From assembly GCA_964423905.1 (NCBI GenBank), contig CAYRGX010000012.1:6994-70993 (forward strand): a stretch of DNA of 64,000 nucleotides, read 5' to 3'. Shown piece by piece: positions 37,844 to 47,501 of this stretch. Source of the stretch: an uncultured Leptospirales bacterium. Its GTDB lineage: Bacteria > Spirochaetota > UBA4802 > UBA5550. The position numbers and the translations under genes are program-made. The first letter of the stretch is position 1. Every line of letters starts with the position of its first letter. The notes under the pieces were generated by a model. That model was not told the DNA's origin, made no database searches, and saw nothing but the letters and a program-made list of their open reading frames with translations.

Positions 37844-38970
37844 TGTTTTTTCTAAACAGAAGTCTATTCCTTGCAACAAATATTATTTTGCTGTATATTT
37901 TTTTGACACCTAAGCGAACGCGTGTTTTTCAGGTTGTTGTGTTTCTTCTGTCCTGGTTTGTCATATATTTTTTGCGACTTGTGACCGGACCGCTGAACAT
38001 TGATCCACTCCTTGAGAGCAACATATTGGGATCATTATACCTGATACCATGTATGCTGATATTCAGCGAAACCCCGCAGGCAAAGTTTTTTGTCTTTTAC
38101 ATGATATATTCCCTTTCCCAGCTTACATACCTTGTATTCATGTATGTGGATAGGTTTTTGTTTCCTGCGATTCCTCAAATGTATATTCTGATCGGGATGA
38201 TTCTGGAAATAGCCCTGCTGCCTGTGATAAAGCGGTATATGAAAACGCCGATCAGAGAAATCGTCGACATATTGAATAAGCAGAATCCTGTCTTTACGAT
38301 GTTTCCTGTATTATCGTTTCTCTTACTCGTCATCTATAGTTTGCAGGAAACGAATCTGGTTTTTGAATTTATCACACTGGTCATATCAACTGTTATAATA
38401 TTTTTTTCATATTTCATGATATCAATCTCGATTTCAGGAACAAGGCGTCAGCAGGAACTGGAATTAATCTCGATGACCGACAACCTGACCGGGCTTTATA
38501 ACAGGCGGTATGTCGAACGAAGATTCCAGGAAGAATATTTACGGTATGGTCGAACCGGCCAGGAATTCACGCTTATCATAGCTGATATTGATTTCTTTAA
38601 AAAGATAAATGACACATACGGACATGCTTGCGGAGATTTTCTGCTGAAGGCTGTCTCGGAAGATATCCGAAAATCGGTCAGGACTTATGACGTGGTCGTC
38701 AGATGGGGAGGGGATGAATTCTTCGTATTATTGCCTGCGACAAATGAGGAACTTGGTTTGAATCTCGCGGAGCGGATCAGGAAAACGGTTGAGACGAGCA
38801 GATATGACTATAATAGTAATTTGTTGGCCATGACTCTGACGCTTGGCGTATCTATTGTCAAGCCAGGGGATACGCCTGACGGCATGATCAAGAAAGCCGA
38901 TGTGGCATTGTATTACGGCAAAAAGAATAATCGAAATTGCACTATTTTGTATAATGAGAATATTGAATGA
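37843..38970 (+). CDS. Membrane-bound diguanylate cyclase
   Basis: ~6 TM N-terminus; DNLTGLYNRR, DIDFFKKINDTYGH, RTYD I-site, GGDEF; low GC. Confidence 0.92.
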   Translation: MFFLNRSLFLATNIILLYIFLTPKRTRVFQVVVFLLSWFVIYFLRLVTGPLNIDPLLESNILGSLYLIPCMLIFSETPQAKFFVFYMIYSLSQLTYLVFMYVDRFLFPAIPQMYILIGMILEIALLPVIKRYMKTPIREIVDILNKQNPVFTMFPVLSFLLLVIYSLQETNLVFEFITLVISTVIIFFSYFMISISISGTRRQQELELISMTDNLTGLYNRRYVERRFQEEYLRYGRTGQEFTLIIADIDFFKKINDTYGHACGDFLLKAVSEDIRKSVRTYDVVVRWGGDEFFVLLPATNEELGLNLAERIRKTVETSRYDYNSNLLAMTLTLGVSIVKPGDTPDGMIKKADVALYYGKKNNRNCTILYNENIE

Positions 38971-39150
38971 GATAAATAGATAAATGATGTCGTATGTTAG
39001 CGGCGCGCATTAAATGTCGGTATGAGCTTTTACATATAATTGAACCATGCAGAATCATATTCTGAAATAGTATGTGATATCAAAGAAAGATGCACCATTT
39101 CCAACTGTGCCAGCATATGTGCATGGATCGGCGTCGGAATATCACCCCCA

Positions 39151-39597
39151 TTATTGCACGAACTCCCAGAGCGGCAAGCCCGTGGTTTCATCGAATCCCC
39201 GACTGAGGGGCGTCCCGACCACTGCCGTGATCACAATCTCGCAGGCGAATACGGTGCATCCTTTCACCAGGTGTCCCCCGAATGCCTTTCCGGTATCGTC
39301 GCCGAGCACAATATGGGCGTGGCAGACGGGCGAGCCCTCCTTCATTGAGACGTTTCCGGTCAGGTTCAGTATCTCATAGTGGCCCGGAAACGATAATTCC
39401 CTGTATTTTTTTTCTGCCTGGTCGTAGTAGGCCACCCTGGCCGAGCTAACCGCGCCGATGGCCTGGATAGTGCCCATGTGTATGGCCTTTTCACTGCAGA
39501 GGGTGAGTATGCCTTCCAACAAGTCTGCCCCGTGCCTCAATCGACCGATATGGATTTCCCCGCCGAGGTAGGTTTCTGTAGATGATTCCCGGGGCAT
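39151..39597 (-). CDS. PPC/DUF296 domain protein
   Basis: IGAV, EILNLTGNV, HAHIVLG and GGHL motifs. Confidence 0.88.
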   Translation of the reverse strand: MPRESSTETYLGGEIHIGRLRHGADLLEGILTLCSEKAIHMGTIQAIGAVSSARVAYYDQAEKKYRELSFPGHYEILNLTGNVSMKEGSPVCHAHIVLGDDTGKAFGGHLVKGCTVFACEIVITAVVGTPLSRGFDETTGLPLWEFVQ

Positions 39598-39771
39598 ACC
39601 GCAGCCTCCTTGTAGAAATGATACTGAAAATAATTGATTCAGCAGCGGTTATGGCGCAAGTTCTTTTTGCAGAAATCATTTTATATGTCTGGGGAGTCCG
39701 AACGGACCACGGGGAGAAAAAGAAGTCCTCCGGCAAAGGCATTACGCCCATGCCGGAGGGGAGGACTCAAT

Positions 39772-42700
39772 TTACGAATAACAGGTCCTGTTGATGATGA
39801 TCAGTTTCAACTCGTCGGACAGCTCGTTGAAGTAGGCGCAGTATCCGGCGACGCGGACCATGAGATACTTGTGCTTTTCAGGATTTTTGTAGGCATCCAG
39901 CAAAATTTCCCGGTTGATCACATTGGGCTGGAACTGCATACCGCCCTTCGTGAGGAAGGTTTTGAAAATGCTCGCCAGGTTTTTCACACCTGCCGCGCCC
40001 GGGAAGAGGGCCGAGTCGATGGTAAACGTCACGGTAGATCCGTTGGCGGCGAAATCAGTGAAGTTCACCCTGGCGATCGAGTTCAGCGACGAAAACAGGT
40101 CGCTCTCTTCCATCCCGTAGTGGGGGGTGACGCTGTTGGCCAGGGGAACGCCCTTCAGCCTGCCTGAGGGGAGGGCCTGGGTTTTTTTACCGTAACGGTC
40201 GCTGACGTTCAACGCGTAATATCCGGCCGAATAGATGCCGTTGCGGGGGCAGTTTTTCACGGACTTGAGGGCCTTGTTGTAGCTTTCCATGACCCAGGTG
40301 ACCCATTCGGAGGCCCTGTCGGACGAATCGTCGCCGAATTTGGGGACTTCGAGCAACGCGGCCCTGATCTGCTGGTTGAATTCGCCCTCGAAGTTGCTGT
40401 CGATGGCGTCGATGATGTAGTTGATCGAGTAGAGCTTTTTCTTGAACACGATTTCCTCGATCGCGTGCAGTGAGTCTGCCACGTCAGTGACCCCGACCGC
40501 CTGGATGCCGCTGCTGTTCAGGGTGGTGCCGCCCTCGTATGCGTCCTTGCCGCTTTCAATGCAGCCTCTGTAGAGCGACGATGCGAGGGGCGTGGTGAAA
40601 TTCTCGCGGAGCTCTTTCTCGATTTTCTGGTGATCCGTCAGGATTCCCGAGGCGAGATGGTTGAGCCGCTTCTGGTAGCGATCGAGAAGCTCTTCCATGC
40701 TTGATGGCGGGTTGATTTTAAAGAGCCCCTTCCTGGAGTGGATTTTCTTAACGATGGCGTTGTGAATTGCCGTAAGCGACCTTGAAAAGATGTTCTTCCC
40801 ACTGAAAGTGAAATCCACGAATTTCGACATCATCTTTTCCATCTGGTCGAGGAGGCCGAAGTTCCACAGGTCGTGTTCGTGCCCCTTCAACGCCTGCAGC
40901 AGAGGCAGGGCGAGGTTCATGTTGGCGCAGTCGGTATTGCCGAAGTGATCGTCCGACGCATTGGGTTCGACGCATCCCACGATCGCGTAGTTCCTCGCGT
41001 CCTGGACACTCACCGGGTAATGCCGCTGGATGTCCTCGATGTAGATCTCATCGCTGAAGAGTTCCGGCATGGGGCACCCGTTGATGTATATCTCGGCGAG
41101 CCTGTCCAGGTACCTGTCAGGGCTGTTCTTGTGTATTCTTGCCGTCATATTGATCGCCAGCGGCTGCAGCTCGCATGCGTCGATGAGCATATAGGTGACG
41201 TCGTTGGTGGCGTCGTTGCCGTCCCTGTCCACGCCGCCGAAGGTCACCGACTGGTCGGTGGAAAGGGTTTCGAAGAGCTTGCTGACGTTGAGGTATGAAT
41301 CGCCGTCGTTTACCAGGATCGCCTCGTCCATCTTGAGGACCAGCAGGCAAAGGAGCTCCTTCGCCTTCTCGTAGGTTATTCTCCCCTCTTCGAGGTCTTT
41401 CTTGTAGTAGGGATAAAGCACCTGGTCGAGCCTGCCGAACGAAACCGCGTTCTCGTAGGACTCGATGCAAAGGGCGATCTGCAAGAACGTGATGCTCTGG
41501 ACGGCTTCGTGGTAAGTACGCGCCGGATATTTCGGAACATGCGCGCAGATATCCGCCATTTCCGCGAGCTCGGCACGGCGCGCGGGGTCTTTTTCCTGTT
41601 CGGCCATGGTCCTCAGCGTGTCCGAGTACCTTTGTGCAAAGGCCTCCAGGCCCTGGAGGGCGATGATGGCGCCGTTATAGAAATCCTGGTTGTTTTCGGG
41701 TTTCTCTTTCTGCTTCGCCCTGATTTCATCGATTATGCCCGTGGTGCCGAGCGAAAGCATCCGATCGAAGTTCACGATAAAGTGGGCGATCGCCGCCATG
41801 TTGTTGTTGAATCCGGCGATCATCTCTGAAGAACGCGCAACGGTTAACATCATGTCGGACAACCTTGGATTCACCTTCCTGAAAAGGCTGTGCTTGAGCC
41901 AGAAGGGAAATATATAAAAGTAAAAGCTCATTCTCTCCCTGAAGGAACACTTAAACGACACGGGTTTCTGCTTGTTGATCTTGTACAGGAATGATATCTC
42001 AAGGATGCCGTAGTGCTCTTCCCATACCTGTCCTGCGACCCTCTTCGAGGTGAAGTTCCCGACGATGAGCTCCCCGGGATACACTTTGACGGTCTTGTTG
42101 TTCAGTACGTAGGCGAGGCGTTCCGCCCTGTGAATGGGGGTCGGTTTCTTGAAACCGTTTTTCTTGTAATATCTTGTCTTAAGCTTTGATACTTCCACGC
42201 AAAGCGCCCTTCCACTTTCGCGTATCTCGTTCTGGATGTCGAGGACGCGCTGGGTGAAGGTGGCCTTCTGTCTCGAGGAATCCAGGTCGTCGTTATGGGC
42301 CCTGATGCCGTACTGCCGGAAGAGAGCCACCGCATTCTTGAGGGAGTTCAGGCTCTGCTCCGCGGTGATGTTCAATGACGCCTGTTCGATGCCTAATCGC
42401 CGGGCCTTCTCCTCGTACATGTTGTGATACCTGAGCAGTTCAATCGAGTCGTGCCCGACTGCCTTCAGAAATTCGGCAGCCGCCCGGATGTTTTCCGCAG
42501 CGTCGTTCAGCCCGGGAACAATCACCATGCGGAACCGTAAGGCCGCCTTCAGGTCGAGGAGCTTCTGGATATTCTTGCGTATAAGGACACCGTCCTGGCT
42601 CGTCAGCTTTTTATGGAGTTCGTCGTTTCCCGCGACCTTAAGATCAACGATGAATAGATCGATATACTGTGCCACCTTTGATATCGTTTTCCAGGGGGCA

Positions 42701-43116
42701 TGAAGGGTTGTTTCCGCTGATACGTGGATATTTTCATCTTTTATCTGTTTTAACAGGTTGAGCAGGCTTTCGGCATCCTGGATCATAGGATCTCCGCCGC
42801 TCAGGGTCACTCCGCCGCCGGTTGAATGATAGTATTCCCTGTCCCTGACAATAATATCCATAATGTCGGAAATTGAAGAATTGGCGTCTGGAGCGATGTC
42901 CGGATTGTATGTCAGGGCCTCGGGGTTCTGGCACCATGCGCACCTCAGGTTGCATCCCTGGAAGAAAATGGTACTGCGGATACCTGGGCCGTCATGCACG
43001 CAGGTACGTTGAATTTTGAGAACGTGCAGCCTGTCGCCCGGCACGGCCTCGGGGATTTGATAATTATGAATGGCGTCAGATTCCCTGTAAGCTTGCTCGA
43101 CTTGAGTTGTCTGCAT
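39772..43116 (-). CDS. Radical-SAM activating enzyme fused to a glycyl-radical enzyme (eliminase-like)
   Basis: N-terminus HDGPGIRSTIFFQGCNLRCAWCQNPE and GGVTLSGGDP; C-terminal ~830 aa with ELIVG, SFGRLDQ, GCVEP (Cys loop) and VRVAGYCAYF (Gly loop); one uninterrupted frame. Confidence 0.92.
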   Translation of the reverse strand: MQTTQVEQAYRESDAIHNYQIPEAVPGDRLHVLKIQRTCVHDGPGIRSTIFFQGCNLRCAWCQNPEALTYNPDIAPDANSSISDIMDIIVRDREYYHSTGGGVTLSGGDPMIQDAESLLNLLKQIKDENIHVSAETTLHAPWKTISKVAQYIDLFIVDLKVAGNDELHKKLTSQDGVLIRKNIQKLLDLKAALRFRMVIVPGLNDAAENIRAAAEFLKAVGHDSIELLRYHNMYEEKARRLGIEQASLNITAEQSLNSLKNAVALFRQYGIRAHNDDLDSSRQKATFTQRVLDIQNEIRESGRALCVEVSKLKTRYYKKNGFKKPTPIHRAERLAYVLNNKTVKVYPGELIVGNFTSKRVAGQVWEEHYGILEISFLYKINKQKPVSFKCSFRERMSFYFYIFPFWLKHSLFRKVNPRLSDMMLTVARSSEMIAGFNNNMAAIAHFIVNFDRMLSLGTTGIIDEIRAKQKEKPENNQDFYNGAIIALQGLEAFAQRYSDTLRTMAEQEKDPARRAELAEMADICAHVPKYPARTYHEAVQSITFLQIALCIESYENAVSFGRLDQVLYPYYKKDLEEGRITYEKAKELLCLLVLKMDEAILVNDGDSYLNVSKLFETLSTDQSVTFGGVDRDGNDATNDVTYMLIDACELQPLAINMTARIHKNSPDRYLDRLAEIYINGCPMPELFSDEIYIEDIQRHYPVSVQDARNYAIVGCVEPNASDDHFGNTDCANMNLALPLLQALKGHEHDLWNFGLLDQMEKMMSKFVDFTFSGKNIFSRSLTAIHNAIVKKIHSRKGLFKINPPSSMEELLDRYQKRLNHLASGILTDHQKIEKELRENFTTPLASSLYRGCIESGKDAYEGGTTLNSSGIQAVGVTDVADSLHAIEEIVFKKKLYSINYIIDAIDSNFEGEFNQQIRAALLEVPKFGDDSSDRASEWVTWVMESYNKALKSVKNCPRNGIYSAGYYALNVSDRYGKKTQALPSGRLKGVPLANSVTPHYGMEESDLFSSLNSIARVNFTDFAANGSTVTFTIDSALFPGAAGVKNLASIFKTFLTKGGMQFQPNVINREILLDAYKNPEKHKYLMVRVAGYCAYFNELSDELKLIIINRTCYS

Positions 43117-43537
43117 ATGGGGCTCCTTTTTAAGGTTATTTTCAAATATTGGGCTGTGTTTCAGGGCTTAACTACTATGAAATATAAATCTTATTATAAA
43201 AACCTTCAACCCCCCATAGTGTATTGGATTAATATTCAGCTGGATTATATAAGCTGATGTAAACGAATTGGCAAACCGGGGGGCCGGATTGTATTTATTT
43301 GTAAAAATGCATAGTTTTTATACAAATTGGTTATATATGATTAATATGAATATCCAAAAAATAGACATTAAATATTATTGTATATAATTTGATATCTTCA
43401 TAATATTTATCCACCAGATAACCTGGATTGACCCTGCCATGAAAACCGGACATGTCGGAATCAGCCGATGATATGAAACCGCGCGCTTGACATGCACGTC
43501 TGTTCATGTTATGGTGATATACCCTAAGGAGGAAACC

Positions 43538-44575
43538 ATGCAACACGAAATCACCACACCCATTGACCTCCTTGACGATGAAGGCCTTGTCGTGGATGAG
43601 GGCTGGGCGAGAAAACCGTACTGGGCCTACGATCGGAACAGGATACGCGCCCCGTGGTACCGCATCAAGGAATGGGATTACTATGCGATTCTGTCGCATG
43701 ATAAGCTCTATGGTATCTGCATGACCATTGCCGACCTCGGATATATCGCCTTCTGTGCGCTGTGCTGGCTTGATTTGAAGAACAAAATCTGCTTACAGCT
43801 TGATACCATCTCCATGTTGCCGCGTGGAAAAACCGGGTTCCCGCCATCTTCAGATGCGGGAGACGTCAGTTTCAGCGATAAAAAGATGGATATCGCTTTC
43901 CGCCTGAAGAACGGCCGGCGTACGCTCACGGTGAGCGCCCCCGGCGTGGAACACCCAGACGGATCGCGGGGACTTTCGGCAGAGATCGTTCTCACGCAGG
44001 ATTCCGCCGCGGACAGCATGAACATCGCGACCTCATGGAAGGAAAACCGGAAAGCCTTCTACTACAACTGCAAGGTGAATTGCATGCCCGCAGAGGGTGT
44101 CGTGAAGATAGGGAACCGGTCTTATCCCTTTACGCCGAAAACCGATTTCGGGTGCCTGGATTGGGGCAGGGGCAATTGGACCTACAAGAACCGATGGTAT
44201 TGGGGGTCGGCGTCCGGTCTTCTCAAGGGCGTGCCGTTCGGCTGGAACATAGGCTACGGTTTCAGCGACAGGACTCCCGCGTCCGAGAACATGCTTTTTT
44301 ACCGGGGCAGGGCCCACAAGCTCGGCGAAGTCACGTTCAACATCGACACCTCGGACTATCTTAAGCCATGGAAATTCACGAGCGACGACGGAAGGTTCGA
44401 GCTCGGCTTCAGGCCGCTCATCGATCGCTACAGCGGCATGAACCTGCTGGTCATGAAATCGGTACAGCACCAGGTATTCGGCATGTTCGATGGCCAGGTG
44501 GTACTCGACGACGGCACCCGGTTACAGGTCGAGAACTTCCTCGGGTTTGCGGAGGATGTGCTGAACTGGTGGTGA
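43538..44575 (+). CDS. DUF2804 family protein
   Basis: RIKEWDYY, LDWGRGNW, WYWGSA, FGWNIGYGF and QHQVFG motifs; AAGGAGG RBS. Confidence 0.85.
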   Translation: MQHEITTPIDLLDDEGLVVDEGWARKPYWAYDRNRIRAPWYRIKEWDYYAILSHDKLYGICMTIADLGYIAFCALCWLDLKNKICLQLDTISMLPRGKTGFPPSSDAGDVSFSDKKMDIAFRLKNGRRTLTVSAPGVEHPDGSRGLSAEIVLTQDSAADSMNIATSWKENRKAFYYNCKVNCMPAEGVVKIGNRSYPFTPKTDFGCLDWGRGNWTYKNRWYWGSASGLLKGVPFGWNIGYGFSDRTPASENMLFYRGRAHKLGEVTFNIDTSDYLKPWKFTSDDGRFELGFRPLIDRYSGMNLLVMKSVQHQVFGMFDGQVVLDDGTRLQVENFLGFAEDVLNWW

Positions 44576-44680
44576 CGGTTCCTTCCTGGAACCGTTTTCG
44601 AAAAATACCGGGATGAGCTCTGCACGGTCGTCTGCGCATCTTTCGCCCATTCCGCGGAACGCACGGTCTCACAAGGATTT

Positions 44681-44887
44681 CTGCAGGGAATGCTGCGACG
44701 GACGATTTATCACAACGGCGAGTTTTTCCCGTATATGGTTCTCGCCGCCCTCGCGGGATCGCTGCTCCTGGCGGGGTTCACCGCTTTCTTTTTCAACATA
44801 GTGATGAGCCTCGGGATAAAAGGGGTGGTGGGGATATTCCTGCCGTCTCAGTTGAAAACCGGGGACCTGCTGCCGCCGGACAAATGA
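44681..44887 (+). pseudogene. Orphan C-terminal fragment resembling a heme-copper oxidase superfamily subunit I
   Basis: GMLRRTIY...GEFFPYMVLAALAGSLLLAGFTAFFFNIVMSLG (G-M-x-R-R plus TM helix); no upstream portion. Confidence 0.4.
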
Positions 44888-44949
44888 GCAGGATATGCCG
44901 CTGATGGCGTACCCGGACGGGAGAGGCTTCCACCGGTTCCTCCTGTCTG

Positions 44950-45900
44950 TTATCTCTGACGGTTTCCCCTGGCTGTGACGCGAACGCATTCAACCTGCGG
45001 ATCAAGGTAATCGTCAAACGAATCAGGATCGTCGACCGGCTCGAAATGGATAAACACGTCGGAGCCGGGCAGGGCCTTTCGTATATCCTTTTCAATTGTT
45101 TTCGACAGGGAATGGGCTTTCCGGACCTGCCATGTGCCCGGCATGACCAGGTGCAGGAAAATGAAATTCTTGCTTACCGACTTTCTGGTGTAGAGGCTGT
45201 GGTAGCGAATCCCCGTATCCCCGCCGTGATTCTTCAATATTCCTTCTATGCTTTCAATTTCATTTTTCGGGAGCGCCTTGTCCATCAACCCGGACACCGA
45301 TCGCATTATAAGCTTTATCCCCGATACGACGATATTCAGCGCGACGACGATCGCGATCACGGGATCGAGGACCGTCCACCCGGTGAGTTTTACAATCAGC
45401 AATCCCACGAGGACGCCGCCGGTCGTCCATACGTCGGTCATCAGGTGTCGGGCGTCGGCTTCGAGAGTAATCGAGTTGTATCGTCTGCCGGCGCGAAGGA
45501 GGACGATCGACGTGAAAAGGTTGATCGCCGACGCCACGACCGAGATGGCAAGCCCGAGGCCGAGATCCTCGAGTGCGCGCGGGTTCCTGATGCGTTCGAT
45601 CGCGGTCACCCCGATCGCCACGGCGGCAACGAGGACCATCGAGCCTTCGAGTACGCTCGAAAAGTATTCGGCCTTGCTGTGACCGAACAGATGGTCCCTG
45701 TCGGGGGGCCTCAGGGCGATGGTTAAAAGGACAAGGGCCATGACGGCCGCGACGAGGTTGATCAGTGATTCGAGCGCATCGGATAATAGCCCGACCGAAC
45801 CCGTGAAATAATAGGCCAGGCCTTTTAAAACGATTGTCAGTATGGATGCGATGATCGACAGGTACAGGAATTTGACGGGTGAATCGTGTGCCATGATCAT
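44950..45900 (-). CDS. Cation diffusion facilitator (FieF-like) transporter
   Basis: SVGLLSDALES, HLFGHSKAEY, ADARHLMTD and IHFEP motifs. Confidence 0.92.
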   Translation of the reverse strand: MIMAHDSPVKFLYLSIIASILTIVLKGLAYYFTGSVGLLSDALESLINLVAAVMALVLLTIALRPPDRDHLFGHSKAEYFSSVLEGSMVLVAAVAIGVTAIERIRNPRALEDLGLGLAISVVASAINLFTSIVLLRAGRRYNSITLEADARHLMTDVWTTGGVLVGLLIVKLTGWTVLDPVIAIVVALNIVVSGIKLIMRSVSGLMDKALPKNEIESIEGILKNHGGDTGIRYHSLYTRKSVSKNFIFLHLVMPGTWQVRKAHSLSKTIEKDIRKALPGSDVFIHFEPVDDPDSFDDYLDPQVECVRVTARGNRQR

Positions 45901-46172
45901 TTCCCGTTGAGTATCTTCAGCCTTGATTGTTACTTCATTGTTTATTTATATATATGGATGTCTTTCCGAGGCTATCAGAAATCTTTTCAATCACCGGACC
46001 AACCCTTGTACTCCGTTATCAATATTATGGAATCCACAGCAATGTGTCAATGTATAATCACGAATGGGATGCGATAGAACGACCCGGCGAGACGCCGGAA
46101 GAAAAGTAAATTATCCATGCGACATAATTTTTTACTTGCATTGCAACGGGGATAATGCTACTGTTTCCCCGC

Positions 46173-47501
46173 ATGCTAGACGGCAACTCGAACAAGATCT
46201 TCGTAATCGACACGAACGTCGTCCTTTACGATTACCGGTGCATCTACTCGTTTCAGGAACACAACGTCATAATACCCATCACCGTGCTCGAGGAGATCGA
46301 CAAGTTCAAGCGCGGGAACGAGATCATCAATTACAATGCGCGGGAGTTCTCGCGAGAGCTCGATGCGCTCATCGGCGACAGGTTCCTTTCCGAGGGGGTG
46401 CATCTCGATTCGGGTGGCATTCTCCTGGTGAGCGCCGCGGCGAAGCGGGACAACGAGCTGAGAAACGTTTTCTGGGAGGATAATCCCGATCATCGTATCC
46501 TGGCGATGGCGCACACCATGGCCTCCAAATACGGCCGGGAGCGCGTGATCCTCGTTTCGAAAGACATCAACCTCAGGATGAAGGCCAAGGGGCTCGGCAT
46601 TTCCGCCGAGGACTACGAAACCGGAAAAATACGCGACATTGACGAGCTCTACACGGGGAAAAACCTCATCGAGGGCGTGGCAGATACCGTGATCGACCGG
46701 CTGTACCGTGAAGGTTCCGTACCGCTGCACGAAATGGAAATGGAACTCGCGCCCTGTCCCAACGAGTATTTTATCCTTCGAAACGGGACCAAAAGCGCGC
46801 TGGCGAGTTTCGCGGCAGAAACGGGAAGTATCAGGCTCGTCGAAAAGCGCCGCGCCTACGGCATACAACCACGTAACGCCGAGCAGACCTTTTCGCTGGA
46901 CGCGCTCATGAATCCCGCGGTGAGCCTCGCGACGCTGTCGGGCAAGGCGGGGACCGGCAAGACGCTCATGGCGCTGGCCGCTGCACTCGAGCGCAGAAAG
47001 GACTACAAGCAGATCCTCCTGGCACGGCCCATCATACCGCTTTCGAACCGCGACATAGGATACCTGCCGGGTGATATAAAGGAGAAGATCGACCCCTACA
47101 TGCAGCCCCTCTTCGACAACCTGTCCGTGATCAAGCACCAGTTCGACGAGGACTCGCCCGAGTTCAGGCGCATCTCGGACATGGTTACGAGCGAAAAGTT
47201 GCTGATCATGGCACTCGCCTACATCAGGGGCAGGAGCCTTTCCAAGGCGTACTTCATCGTCGACGAGGCGCAGAATCTCACGCCGCACGAGGTGAAAACG
47301 ATCATCACAAGGGCGGGGGAGGGGACCAAGGTCGTTTTCACCGGCGACCCCTACCAGATCGATACGCCCTACCTGGATTCGCGGTCGAACGGACTGACCT
47401 ACCTCATCGACAAGATGAAGGGCCAGGACATATACGCGCACGTGACCCTCGAGAAAGGGGAACGCTCCCACCTGGCCGAGCTCGCCTCGGATCTCCTCTG
47501 A
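46173..47501 (+). CDS. PIN-PhoH family ATPase/ribonuclease
   Basis: VIDTNV, PDHRIL, SKDINLR, GKAGTGKT, YIRGRS, DEAQN and GDPYQID motifs. Confidence 0.93.
   Translation: MLDGNSNKIFVIDTNVVLYDYRCIYSFQEHNVIIPITVLEEIDKFKRGNEIINYNAREFSRELDALIGDRFLSEGVHLDSGGILLVSAAAKRDNELRNVFWEDNPDHRILAMAHTMASKYGRERVILVSKDINLRMKAKGLGISAEDYETGKIRDIDELYTGKNLIEGVADTVIDRLYREGSVPLHEMEMELAPCPNEYFILRNGTKSALASFAAETGSIRLVEKRRAYGIQPRNAEQTFSLDALMNPAVSLATLSGKAGTGKTLMALAAALERRKDYKQILLARPIIPLSNRDIGYLPGDIKEKIDPYMQPLFDNLSVIKHQFDEDSPEFRRISDMVTSEKLLIMALAYIRGRSLSKAYFIVDEAQNLTPHEVKTIITRAGEGTKVVFTGDPYQIDTPYLDSRSNGLTYLIDKMKGQDIYAHVTLEKGERSHLAELASDLL

Follow-up and report, generated by a model that had tools for sequence, protein, structure and literature searches.

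We describe a gene in which a glycyl-radical enzyme (GRE) and a radical S-adenosylmethionine (SAM) activase are encoded as one continuous polypeptide. The gene occupies positions 39772–43116 on the reverse strand of a 64,000-nucleotide stretch, here called the window, from contig CAYRGX010000012.1 of an uncultured Leptospirales bacterium (GenBank assembly GCA_964423905.1). GREs are oxygen-sensitive, and their radical-SAM activator is normally a separate protein. With a rough probability of 0.8, we read the gene as encoding a functional single-chain activase-GRE, probably a 1,2-eliminase and possibly one whose substrate is a small diol or amino alcohol; that it is self-activating is what we infer from its sequence. 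The parts and their chemistry are familiar, and what is new is the single-chain architecture, the pairing of an insert-less activase with an eliminase-type GRE, and a pocket unlike that of any characterized eliminase.

No description of a natural activase-GRE fusion was found in the full-text literature (subscription journals not covered) or in a 2026 review of GREs, the text of which contains neither “fused” nor “fusion” (PMC13450708). The gene had first been singled out in a sequence-only reading as encoding a GRE and its own activase in one covalent chain, with no substrate assigned, and this description is consistent with every sequence test available. The accompanying premise that characterized GREs have separately encoded activases agrees with the same review (PMC13450708).

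One reading frame for two enzymes

The open reading frame (ORF) listing and the translation of the window give a single unbroken frame of 1114 residues, which starts at an ATG at position 43116 and is divided as follows; model scores are the AlphaFold2 predicted local distance difference test (pLDDT) and predicted template-modeling (pTM) scores.

39772–43116 (−): whole activase-GRE fusion gene, 1114 residues plus stop codon (ORF and Pfam; AlphaFold2 mean pLDDT 85.2, pTM 0.84)
43123–43127 (−): Shine-Dalgarno sequence AGGAG, six nucleotides before the ATG at 43116 (read from the sequence)
43030–43116 (−): variable N-terminal extension, residues 1–29, probably disordered (15% column identity among 62 homologues; pLDDT below 50 at residues 1–24)
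42301–43029 (−): radical-SAM activase domain, residues 30–272 (Pfam Radical_SAM/Fer4_12; TIGR02494, 212.7 bits; PflA structures 8fo0/3c8f in the PDB, E 1e-25 to 1e-27)
42259–42300 (−): interdomain linker, residues 273–286 (14 residues), predicted to be ordered (46% identity, pLDDT ~77–83)
39775–42258 (−): GRE domain, residues 287–1114, eliminase-type fold (PFL-like and Gly_radical; Foldseek TM-score 0.90–0.93)

The sequence-only reading had described one 1114-residue frame holding an activase, a linker and a full GRE, and the ORF, its translation and Pfam agree on this, with Radical_SAM, PFL-like and Gly_radical all present in the one frame. Its motif positions were also recovered: the CxxxCxxC placed at about 42930–42955 is CNLRCAWC (C55 to C62, 42931–42954), the linker segment HNDDLDSSRQK placed at about 42270–42300 comprises residues 274–284 (42265–42297), and GCVEP (about 40963–40977) and RVAGYC (about 39838–39855) are residues 714–718 and 1088–1093, respectively, at those same coordinates. 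The junction was likewise said to lack an ATG or ribosome-binding site, and there is indeed no in-frame ATG between residues 234 and 395, nor any Shine-Dalgarno-like sequence at the right spacing from the three in-frame GTG/TTG codons of the junction (248, 263 and 307). Across an alignment of 62 homologues (65–78% identity), on which all residue conservation given here is based, the linker at residues 273–286 shows no insertion or deletion; its length is constant, and a D-L-D motif is conserved within it.

Recurrence of the fusion

In a homologue search over 5.8 billion protein clusters, at least 120 matched, with lengths of 1055–1133 residues and 65–78% identity; each has the identical four-domain architecture, and they derive from NCBI, JGI, ENA and Logan assemblies. 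In a scan of one genome per GTDB species, the fused protein was present in at least 166 species genomes, and identity within the family ranges overall from 60 to 78%. The bacterial carriers include Thermodesulfobacteriota (Smithella, Syntrophaceae, Desulfomonilia), Bacillota (Christensenellales, Eubacteriales), Spirochaetota, Dehalococcoidia, Hydrogenedentota, Nitrospirota and metagenome-assembled genomes (MAGs) labeled as Myxococcota, and the family extends to Asgard archaea (Promethearchaeota, Sigynarchaeota). These carriers are uncultured anaerobes throughout, and the family is common in digesters, sediments and Asgard archaea.

Homologues that always occur as two genes would have spoken against a real fusion; every close homologue was found to be fused, and no natural split form, with activase and GRE as separate genes, appeared among close homologues in the cluster and species searches. 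On these sequence grounds, the fusion is genuine rather than an assembly or frameshift artifact, a possibility that became untenable once more than 120 clusters and 166 species genomes had shown this architecture. That two adjacent genes were merged in this MAG by a sequencing or assembly frameshift or a lost stop might be suspected from the 111-contig, 89% complete source assembly and from the frameshifted fragments of the family that do occur in public data, but it is effectively refuted by the repetition of both architecture and linker length in independent clusters and genomes, by a linker that is conserved in its own right with its D-L-D motif, and by a junction with no start codon that has a ribosome-binding site.

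Short “activase-only” entries in the 50%-identity library carry out-of-frame garbage tails typical of frameshifted contigs. Two of them, P0230 and P0166, were considered as stand-alone activases and rejected as frameshifted fragments; together with P0125, they are truncated family members from public assemblies that are easily mistaken for free activases.

The activase domain

The N-terminal enzyme matches Fer4_12/Radical_SAM at residues 42–208 (E 1e-13), and its functional motifs are conserved as follows.

42976–42993 (−): DGPGIR glycine-loop motif, residues 42–47 (D42, G43 and G45 invariant; P44 and R47 at least 90% conserved)
42931–42954 (−): CX3CX2C motif (C55, C59, C62), which ligates the SAM-binding [4Fe-4S] cluster (all three cysteines invariant)
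42877–42921 (−): short loop, residues 66–80, where other GRE activases hold a two-cluster ferredoxin insert of about 55 residues (TIGR02494 positions 45–103 unmatched)

We take DGPGIR to be the activase signature for glycine-loop binding, with a role as in PFL-AE. The SAM motif GGE/D corresponds to G107-G108-D109, which is invariant save for D/E at position 109.

The absence of a ferredoxin insert, as the sequence-only reading had it, is evident from several comparisons. Only profile positions 1–44 and 104–288 of TIGR02494 (PFLE_PFLC) are matched; no Fer4 Pfam match other than Fer4_12 was found in the fusion, and the eight-cysteine insert is absent. The loop at residues 66–80 corresponds to a 52-residue gap against the fused relative P0123, and its pLDDT falls below 50 at residues 74–77. 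According to the 2026 review, the auxiliary domain is present in the vast majority of GRE activases and is lacking only in those of PFL and class III ribonucleotide reductase, with its function still unknown (PMC13450708); it is therefore already unusual for an eliminase-type GRE to be paired with an activase that has no insert.

The description of the domain as a short, PflA-like activase was upheld for its architecture and not for its sequence. E. coli PflA (3C8F, 8FO0) is likewise a radical-SAM-only enzyme of about 245 residues with no auxiliary ferredoxin-like domain, and its whole length aligns with residues 40–271 of the fusion. Unlike the fused domain, however, PflA is a free protein serving PFL, a Cys-Cys enzyme, and the fused domain falls below the PflA cut-off (TIGR02493, 150.5 against 231.75 bits) while passing the PflC/PflE-type cut-off of 174.35 bits (TIGR02494; 219.4 bits in the genome search). 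Since its nearest relatives are fused activases that still hold the insert, the domain is more likely a secondarily trimmed ferredoxin-type (PflC/PflE-type) enzyme than a PflA.

The GRE domain and its active site

The C-terminal enzyme matches PFL-like (PF02901, the ten-stranded barrel domain, residues 289–746+, E 5.5e-143) and Gly_radical (PF01228, residues 993–1097, E 7e-20). Foldseek aligns its AlphaFold2 model with 5i2g, 9rco, 1r8w and 2f3o at the TM-scores given above, normalized to the target. By sequence, the closest PDB entry is PFL2 of A. fulgidus (2f3o, E 3e-104), followed by propanediol dehydratases, CutC, PflD and glycerol dehydratase. The active site was mapped by HMMER residue alignments to 5i2a, 1r8w and 2f3o.

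41782–41784 (−): H445, equivalent to His166 of R. inulinivorans propanediol dehydratase and His164 of glycerol dehydratase (alignment to 5i2a; invariant)
41446–41457 (−): Y554-E555-N556-A557 pocket motif, in place of the S-G-H-S of diol dehydratases (alignments to 5i2a and 2f3o; E555, N556 and A557 invariant)
40963–40977 (−): Cys loop GCVEP with the thiyl-radical Cys715 and general-base Glu717 (matching C438 and E440 of 5i2a; invariant)
40930–40932 (−): D729, equivalent to Asp452 of propanediol dehydratase and Asp447 of glycerol dehydratase (alignment; invariant)
40717–40881 (−): family-specific insert of about 40–55 residues (746–800), predicted to form a helical hairpin (43% identity; helices at 755–770 and 776–795)
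39838–39855 (−): glycyl radical motif RVAGYC, fitting the C-terminal consensus RVxG[FWY], with the radical site G1091 at 39844–39846 (Pfam; R1088, A1090, G1091, Y1092 and C1093 invariant)

In both halves of the protein, the catalytic residues thus stand in invariant columns. The single cysteine in a C-x-E context had been said to mark the eliminase class rather than PFL, which fits the G-C-V-E sequence, as found in the GRE 1,2-eliminases (glycerol and propanediol dehydratases, CutC, HypD and IslA), and a TIGR01255 score of 120 against a cut-off of 994. The domain also misses the cut-off of every characterized eliminase model and of the PFL2-3 subfamily model, and it belongs with none of these enzymes: the PFL2-3 subfamily model TIGR01774 gives 514 (cut-off 678.2), HpfG 374.6 (1000), HypD 342.7 (1100) and CutC 317.8 (1050). 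The segment after the cysteine had been thought unlike that of characterized enzymes, and the Cys-loop tail NASDDHFGNTDC does match none of them. The insert at residues 746–800 is missing from all GREs in the PDB (residues 455 to 469 of 2f3o correspond to 461 to 517 of the query) and shows the lowest conservation within the GRE. An aromatic stretch at residues 395–410 (FYFYIFPFWLKH) was also considered as an insert and rejected, as it aligns with normal N-terminal helices of 2f3o.

Two groups of solved enzymes are instructive for comparison. A. fulgidus PFL2 (2F3O), which has a separately encoded activase, shares about 31% identity, the GCVE Cys loop, and the His and Asp residues with the fusion, and among solved GREs it is the only one with the Y-E-[NQ]-A motif (Y-E-Q-A). 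It differs in being a stand-alone GRE of 776 residues without the 746–800 insert and in its Cys-loop tail (IAPFGNSFTSSD against PNASDDHFGNTD), and it offers no clue to the substrate, because PFL2 is itself an uncharacterized enzyme. The B12-independent diol dehydratases, namely R. inulinivorans propanediol dehydratase (5I2A/5I2G, 9RCO) and C. butyricum glycerol dehydratase (1R8W), share the fold (TM-score 0.90–0.92 on the target), and their catalytic Cys, Glu, His and Asp all align with those of the fusion. Their sequence identity to it is nevertheless only 26–28%, the S-G-H-S at residues 281–284 of the Roseburia propanediol dehydratase is replaced by Y-E-N-A, V696 of that enzyme becomes L969 (invariant in the family), and all cut-offs are failed. 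Moreover, their ferredoxin-type activase is separate, whereas that of the fusion is attached and without a ferredoxin-like domain.

Proposed reaction and candidate substrates

In the mechanism that we propose, the reduced [4Fe-4S] cluster would split SAM to yield a 5'-deoxyadenosyl radical, which would take a hydrogen atom from G1091 of its own chain or of the partner chain in a dimer, GREs being usually dimeric. The glycyl radical would then generate the thiyl radical at C715, which would take hydrogen from the hydroxyl-bearing carbon of the substrate; with E717 as the base, a neighboring leaving group (OH, possibly an amine) would be eliminated to give a carbonyl compound, probably an aldehyde. 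In diol dehydratases, the His and Asp equivalent to H445 and D729 hold the substrate hydroxyls.

The gene neighborhood was examined in 80 loci drawn from the 166 species carrying the fusion, and in 10 further loci found by identity look-up. No conserved metabolic partner was detected across these loci by all-against-all clustering or by Pfam counts over 256 flanking ORFs. The only frequent neighbor in the 80 loci is a GntR/FCD regulator directly upstream on the same strand, in 18 loci that are all of Thermodesulfobacteriota type; a TetR regulator takes the same upstream place in four or five Myxococcota-type loci, and overall one-component regulators accompany the gene in about one-third of loci. 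In five loci from three phyla, an iron-containing alcohol dehydrogenase adjoins the gene or lies within about 2 kb of it; three subfamilies are represented, YqhD-like, FucO-like and GldA, the last scoring above its cut-off. A GlcD-like oxidase adjoins the gene in one locus, and a protein with the same two FAD-oxidase domains lies a few genes upstream in another; MFS_2 transporters are found near the gene in several Clostridia. In three loci of uncultured Eubacteriales (L012, L046 and L077), a GDPD gene lies directly downstream on the same strand, with PI-PLC-X, xylose-isomerase-like TIM barrels and an FAD oxidoreductase nearby, an assemblage resembling a small lipid head-group or inositol-type cluster.

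The alcohol dehydrogenases, the GlcD-like oxidase and the GDPD, weak signals though they are, incline us tentatively, at a little less than even odds, toward a small C2–C3 diol or amino alcohol as the substrate, with an aldehyde as the product. Diol dehydratase pathways also involve alcohol dehydrogenases, and a few fusion loci hold such GldA-, YqhD- or FucO-like enzymes, but no microcompartment or pathway operon surrounds the fusion as it does the diol dehydratases. Several observations weigh against elimination from a small diol: iron-containing alcohol dehydrogenases account for only 4 of the 134 directly flanking ORFs, and most loci show nothing; the pocket, with Y-E-N-A and not S-G-H-S, is unlike that of every characterized eliminase; and all curated equivalog cut-offs were failed, that of the PFL2-3 subfamily included (514 < 678).

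Since the pocket differs and all cut-offs were failed, the chemistry could be other than 1,2-elimination. The strongest alternative, unlikely but to be taken seriously, is a self-activating GRE that carries out C-N, C-S or C-C cleavage or an isomerization on an unrelated substrate, possibly a lipid polar head. It would account for a Y-E-N-A pocket and a NASDDHFGNTDC tail that match no characterized enzyme, for the failure of every equivalog model, and for a stem branch of 1.43 substitutions per site in the GRE tree, as expected after a change of function; on the other hand, the full Cys/Glu/His/Asp set of C-O eliminases is kept, and propanediol and glycerol dehydratases rank first among the structural matches. 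The lipid variant draws on adjacent regulators that score weakly best against the acyl-CoA sensors FadR and FasR, and on lipid-related neighbors in scattered loci (GDPD, PI-PLC-X, a DUF374 acyltransferase, patatin and an Aas-like acyltransferase). The regulator scores, however, do not separate FadR from LldR, PdhR and NanR (best family scores of 90, 87, 81 and 75 bits, respectively; FasR and FadR for the TetR type), and each type of lipid-related neighbor is limited to a few related loci, so that a lipid substrate is only a lead.

Proposed self-activation

Evidence bearing on self-activation comes from the complement of GREs and activases in the carrier genomes. The source genome has six GREs, the fused one included; four of the others each adjoin their own separate, full-length, insert-bearing activase, and the fused GRE has only its own domain. 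Two Christensenellales genomes repeat this pattern, their unfused GREs being accompanied by a neighboring activase. One Dehalococcoidales MAG yielded no GRE and no GRE-type activase other than the fusion, an observation whose force is lessened by the MAG being only 1.1 Mb and possibly incomplete.

We consider it improbable that the fusion is real and its activase domain nonetheless does not activate its own GRE, whether as a degenerate docking or structural domain or as a general activase for the other GREs of the cell. Five other GREs are present in the source genome, one of them with no adjacent activase among the matches, and in the HPAD system a lasting radical is reported to depend on the ferredoxin-like domain (PMC13450708). 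Yet the cluster ligands, SAM motif and glycine-loop motif are invariant columns, a constraint not expected of a domain that is only structural; the activase and GRE trees share the family clade and a similar order, as expected from joint evolution; the unfused GREs of the same genomes retain neighboring activases of their own; and in one genome no GRE or activase apart from the fusion was found.

A more detailed version of the self-activating reading, which as a whole we regard as doubtful, would have the activase docked by the rigid linker and the helical hairpin, so that it installs the radical, and can restore it after quenching, within the chain or dimer at a fixed 1:1 ratio. In this version, constant proximity would have made the ferredoxin domain dispensable, and it would have been lost after the fusion; the gene would have spread horizontally among bacterial phyla and to Asgard archaea, and the enzyme would dehydrate or deaminate a small, ubiquitous C2–C3 diol or amino alcohol, such as might come from lipid head groups. 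If this were true, the auxiliary domain would normally serve docking or radical persistence.

The five further GREs of the source genome (G000) were located at C2:209046–209360, C2:194454–194765, C66:5511–5822, C9:21488–21799 and C17:49519–49815, in frames of 803–1014 residues; the one at C17 is that with no adjacent activase among the matches. Many related genomes, as well as the source genome itself, also encode GREs of about 990–1060 residues with an N-terminal extension of about 170–220 residues (e.g., G000:C2:195363–196742; P0142, P0145 and P0164), and in P0142 this extension includes an SCP2 lipid-carrier domain.

Origin and probable transfer

At 50% clustering, the fusion family collapses to one full-length representative, and its next-best relatives, at 36–38% identity, are other activase-GRE fusions (P0123, 1095 residues; P0126, 1136 residues; and the fragment P0133). 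The architecture is thus not unique to the family, as two or three more divergent fused clusters exist. These share the domain order, activase then GRE, but they retain the two-cluster ferredoxin insert with its eight cysteines and have longer or low-complexity linkers.

In an IQ-TREE phylogeny of the GRE domain, the family forms a clade with 100/100 support, on the long stem noted above and with a shallow crown, and is nested in a 99/96 clade that also includes six unfused GREs and the fusions retaining the insert; descent of all fusions from one event was neither shown nor rejected (approximately unbiased test, p = 0.10). In the activase-domain tree, all fused activases stand apart from the four separate activases of the window genome (95/92, with a small outgroup), and P0126 is the sister of the fusion family. 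Both domain trees recover the same family clade with a similar internal order. The simplest reading of these trees would be that a ferredoxin-type activase was fused first and its insert lost later; several independent fusions are possible.

The source genome belongs to the same GTDB family as Spirochaetae bacterium HGW-Spirochaetae-1. Of 41 related genomes, 7 carry the gene (3 of 25 in the same family, 4 of 16 elsewhere in the order) at 62–78% identity, and the 78%-identical copy, from within the same GTDB family, has a wholly different gene neighborhood. In the family tree, the window copy groups with Bacillota copies (support 99), most Spirochaetota copies fall in the other major clade, and the Asgard copies are nested among bacterial ones. 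These distributions fit repeated horizontal transfer across phyla and into Asgard archaea, in which the gene would behave as a mobile one-gene unit because it needs no partner activase; no sign of a mobile element was found in repeat and composition scans around the gene.

Two genomes carry two paralogues each, Smithella sp. Yes70-30 (L073 and L078) and Candidatus Sigynarchaeum springense (L037 and L075), which belong to different subclades and have identical residues at all active-site positions. A separate 1129-residue frame at G034:C9:33893–36043 (−), 30% identical over query residues 56–743, spans parts of both the activase and the GRE; it has two in-frame TAA stops and may represent another type of fusion, either decaying or recoded.

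Genes adjoining the fusion in the window

The fusion gene has an isolated position in the window; one intergenic feature and two flanking genes complete the locus.

43117–43537 (no strand assigned): AT-rich divergent intergenic (promoter) region, 421 bp (no known RNA family)

An Rfam scan of positions 38500–46200 (E <= 1) revealed no riboswitch or leader, and no terminator or repeat there stood out. Across the 421-bp spacer, a DUF2804 gene with a strong GGAGG ribosome-binding site diverges from the fusion gene (43538–44575, +; Pfam E 2.5e-133). A PCC/DUF296 gene of 148 residues (39151–39597, −) follows the fusion gene on its own strand after 174 nucleotides in which no terminator is predicted, and the two may be co-transcribed. 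Neither the DUF2804 nor the PCC gene is in any flanking-gene cluster spanning three or more of the 80 loci.

Implications

How an activase reaches the buried glycine of its GRE is a long-standing gap, and no GRE-activase complex was found among the PDB sequence or fold matches of the fusion. A natural single chain fixes both the stoichiometry and the proximity of the two partners, which suits cryo-electron microscopy and electron paramagnetic resonance, and the protein could serve as a one-chain model of the GRE activation step. The sister fusions, which have the ferredoxin domain, and the present family, which does not, together provide a natural experiment on that domain. As a radical enzyme encoded by one gene, the fusion is also convenient for heterologous expression and engineering. 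Finally, the family constitutes a large and strongly conserved GRE clade, and once its substrate is found, anaerobic carbon turnover would gain a further step.

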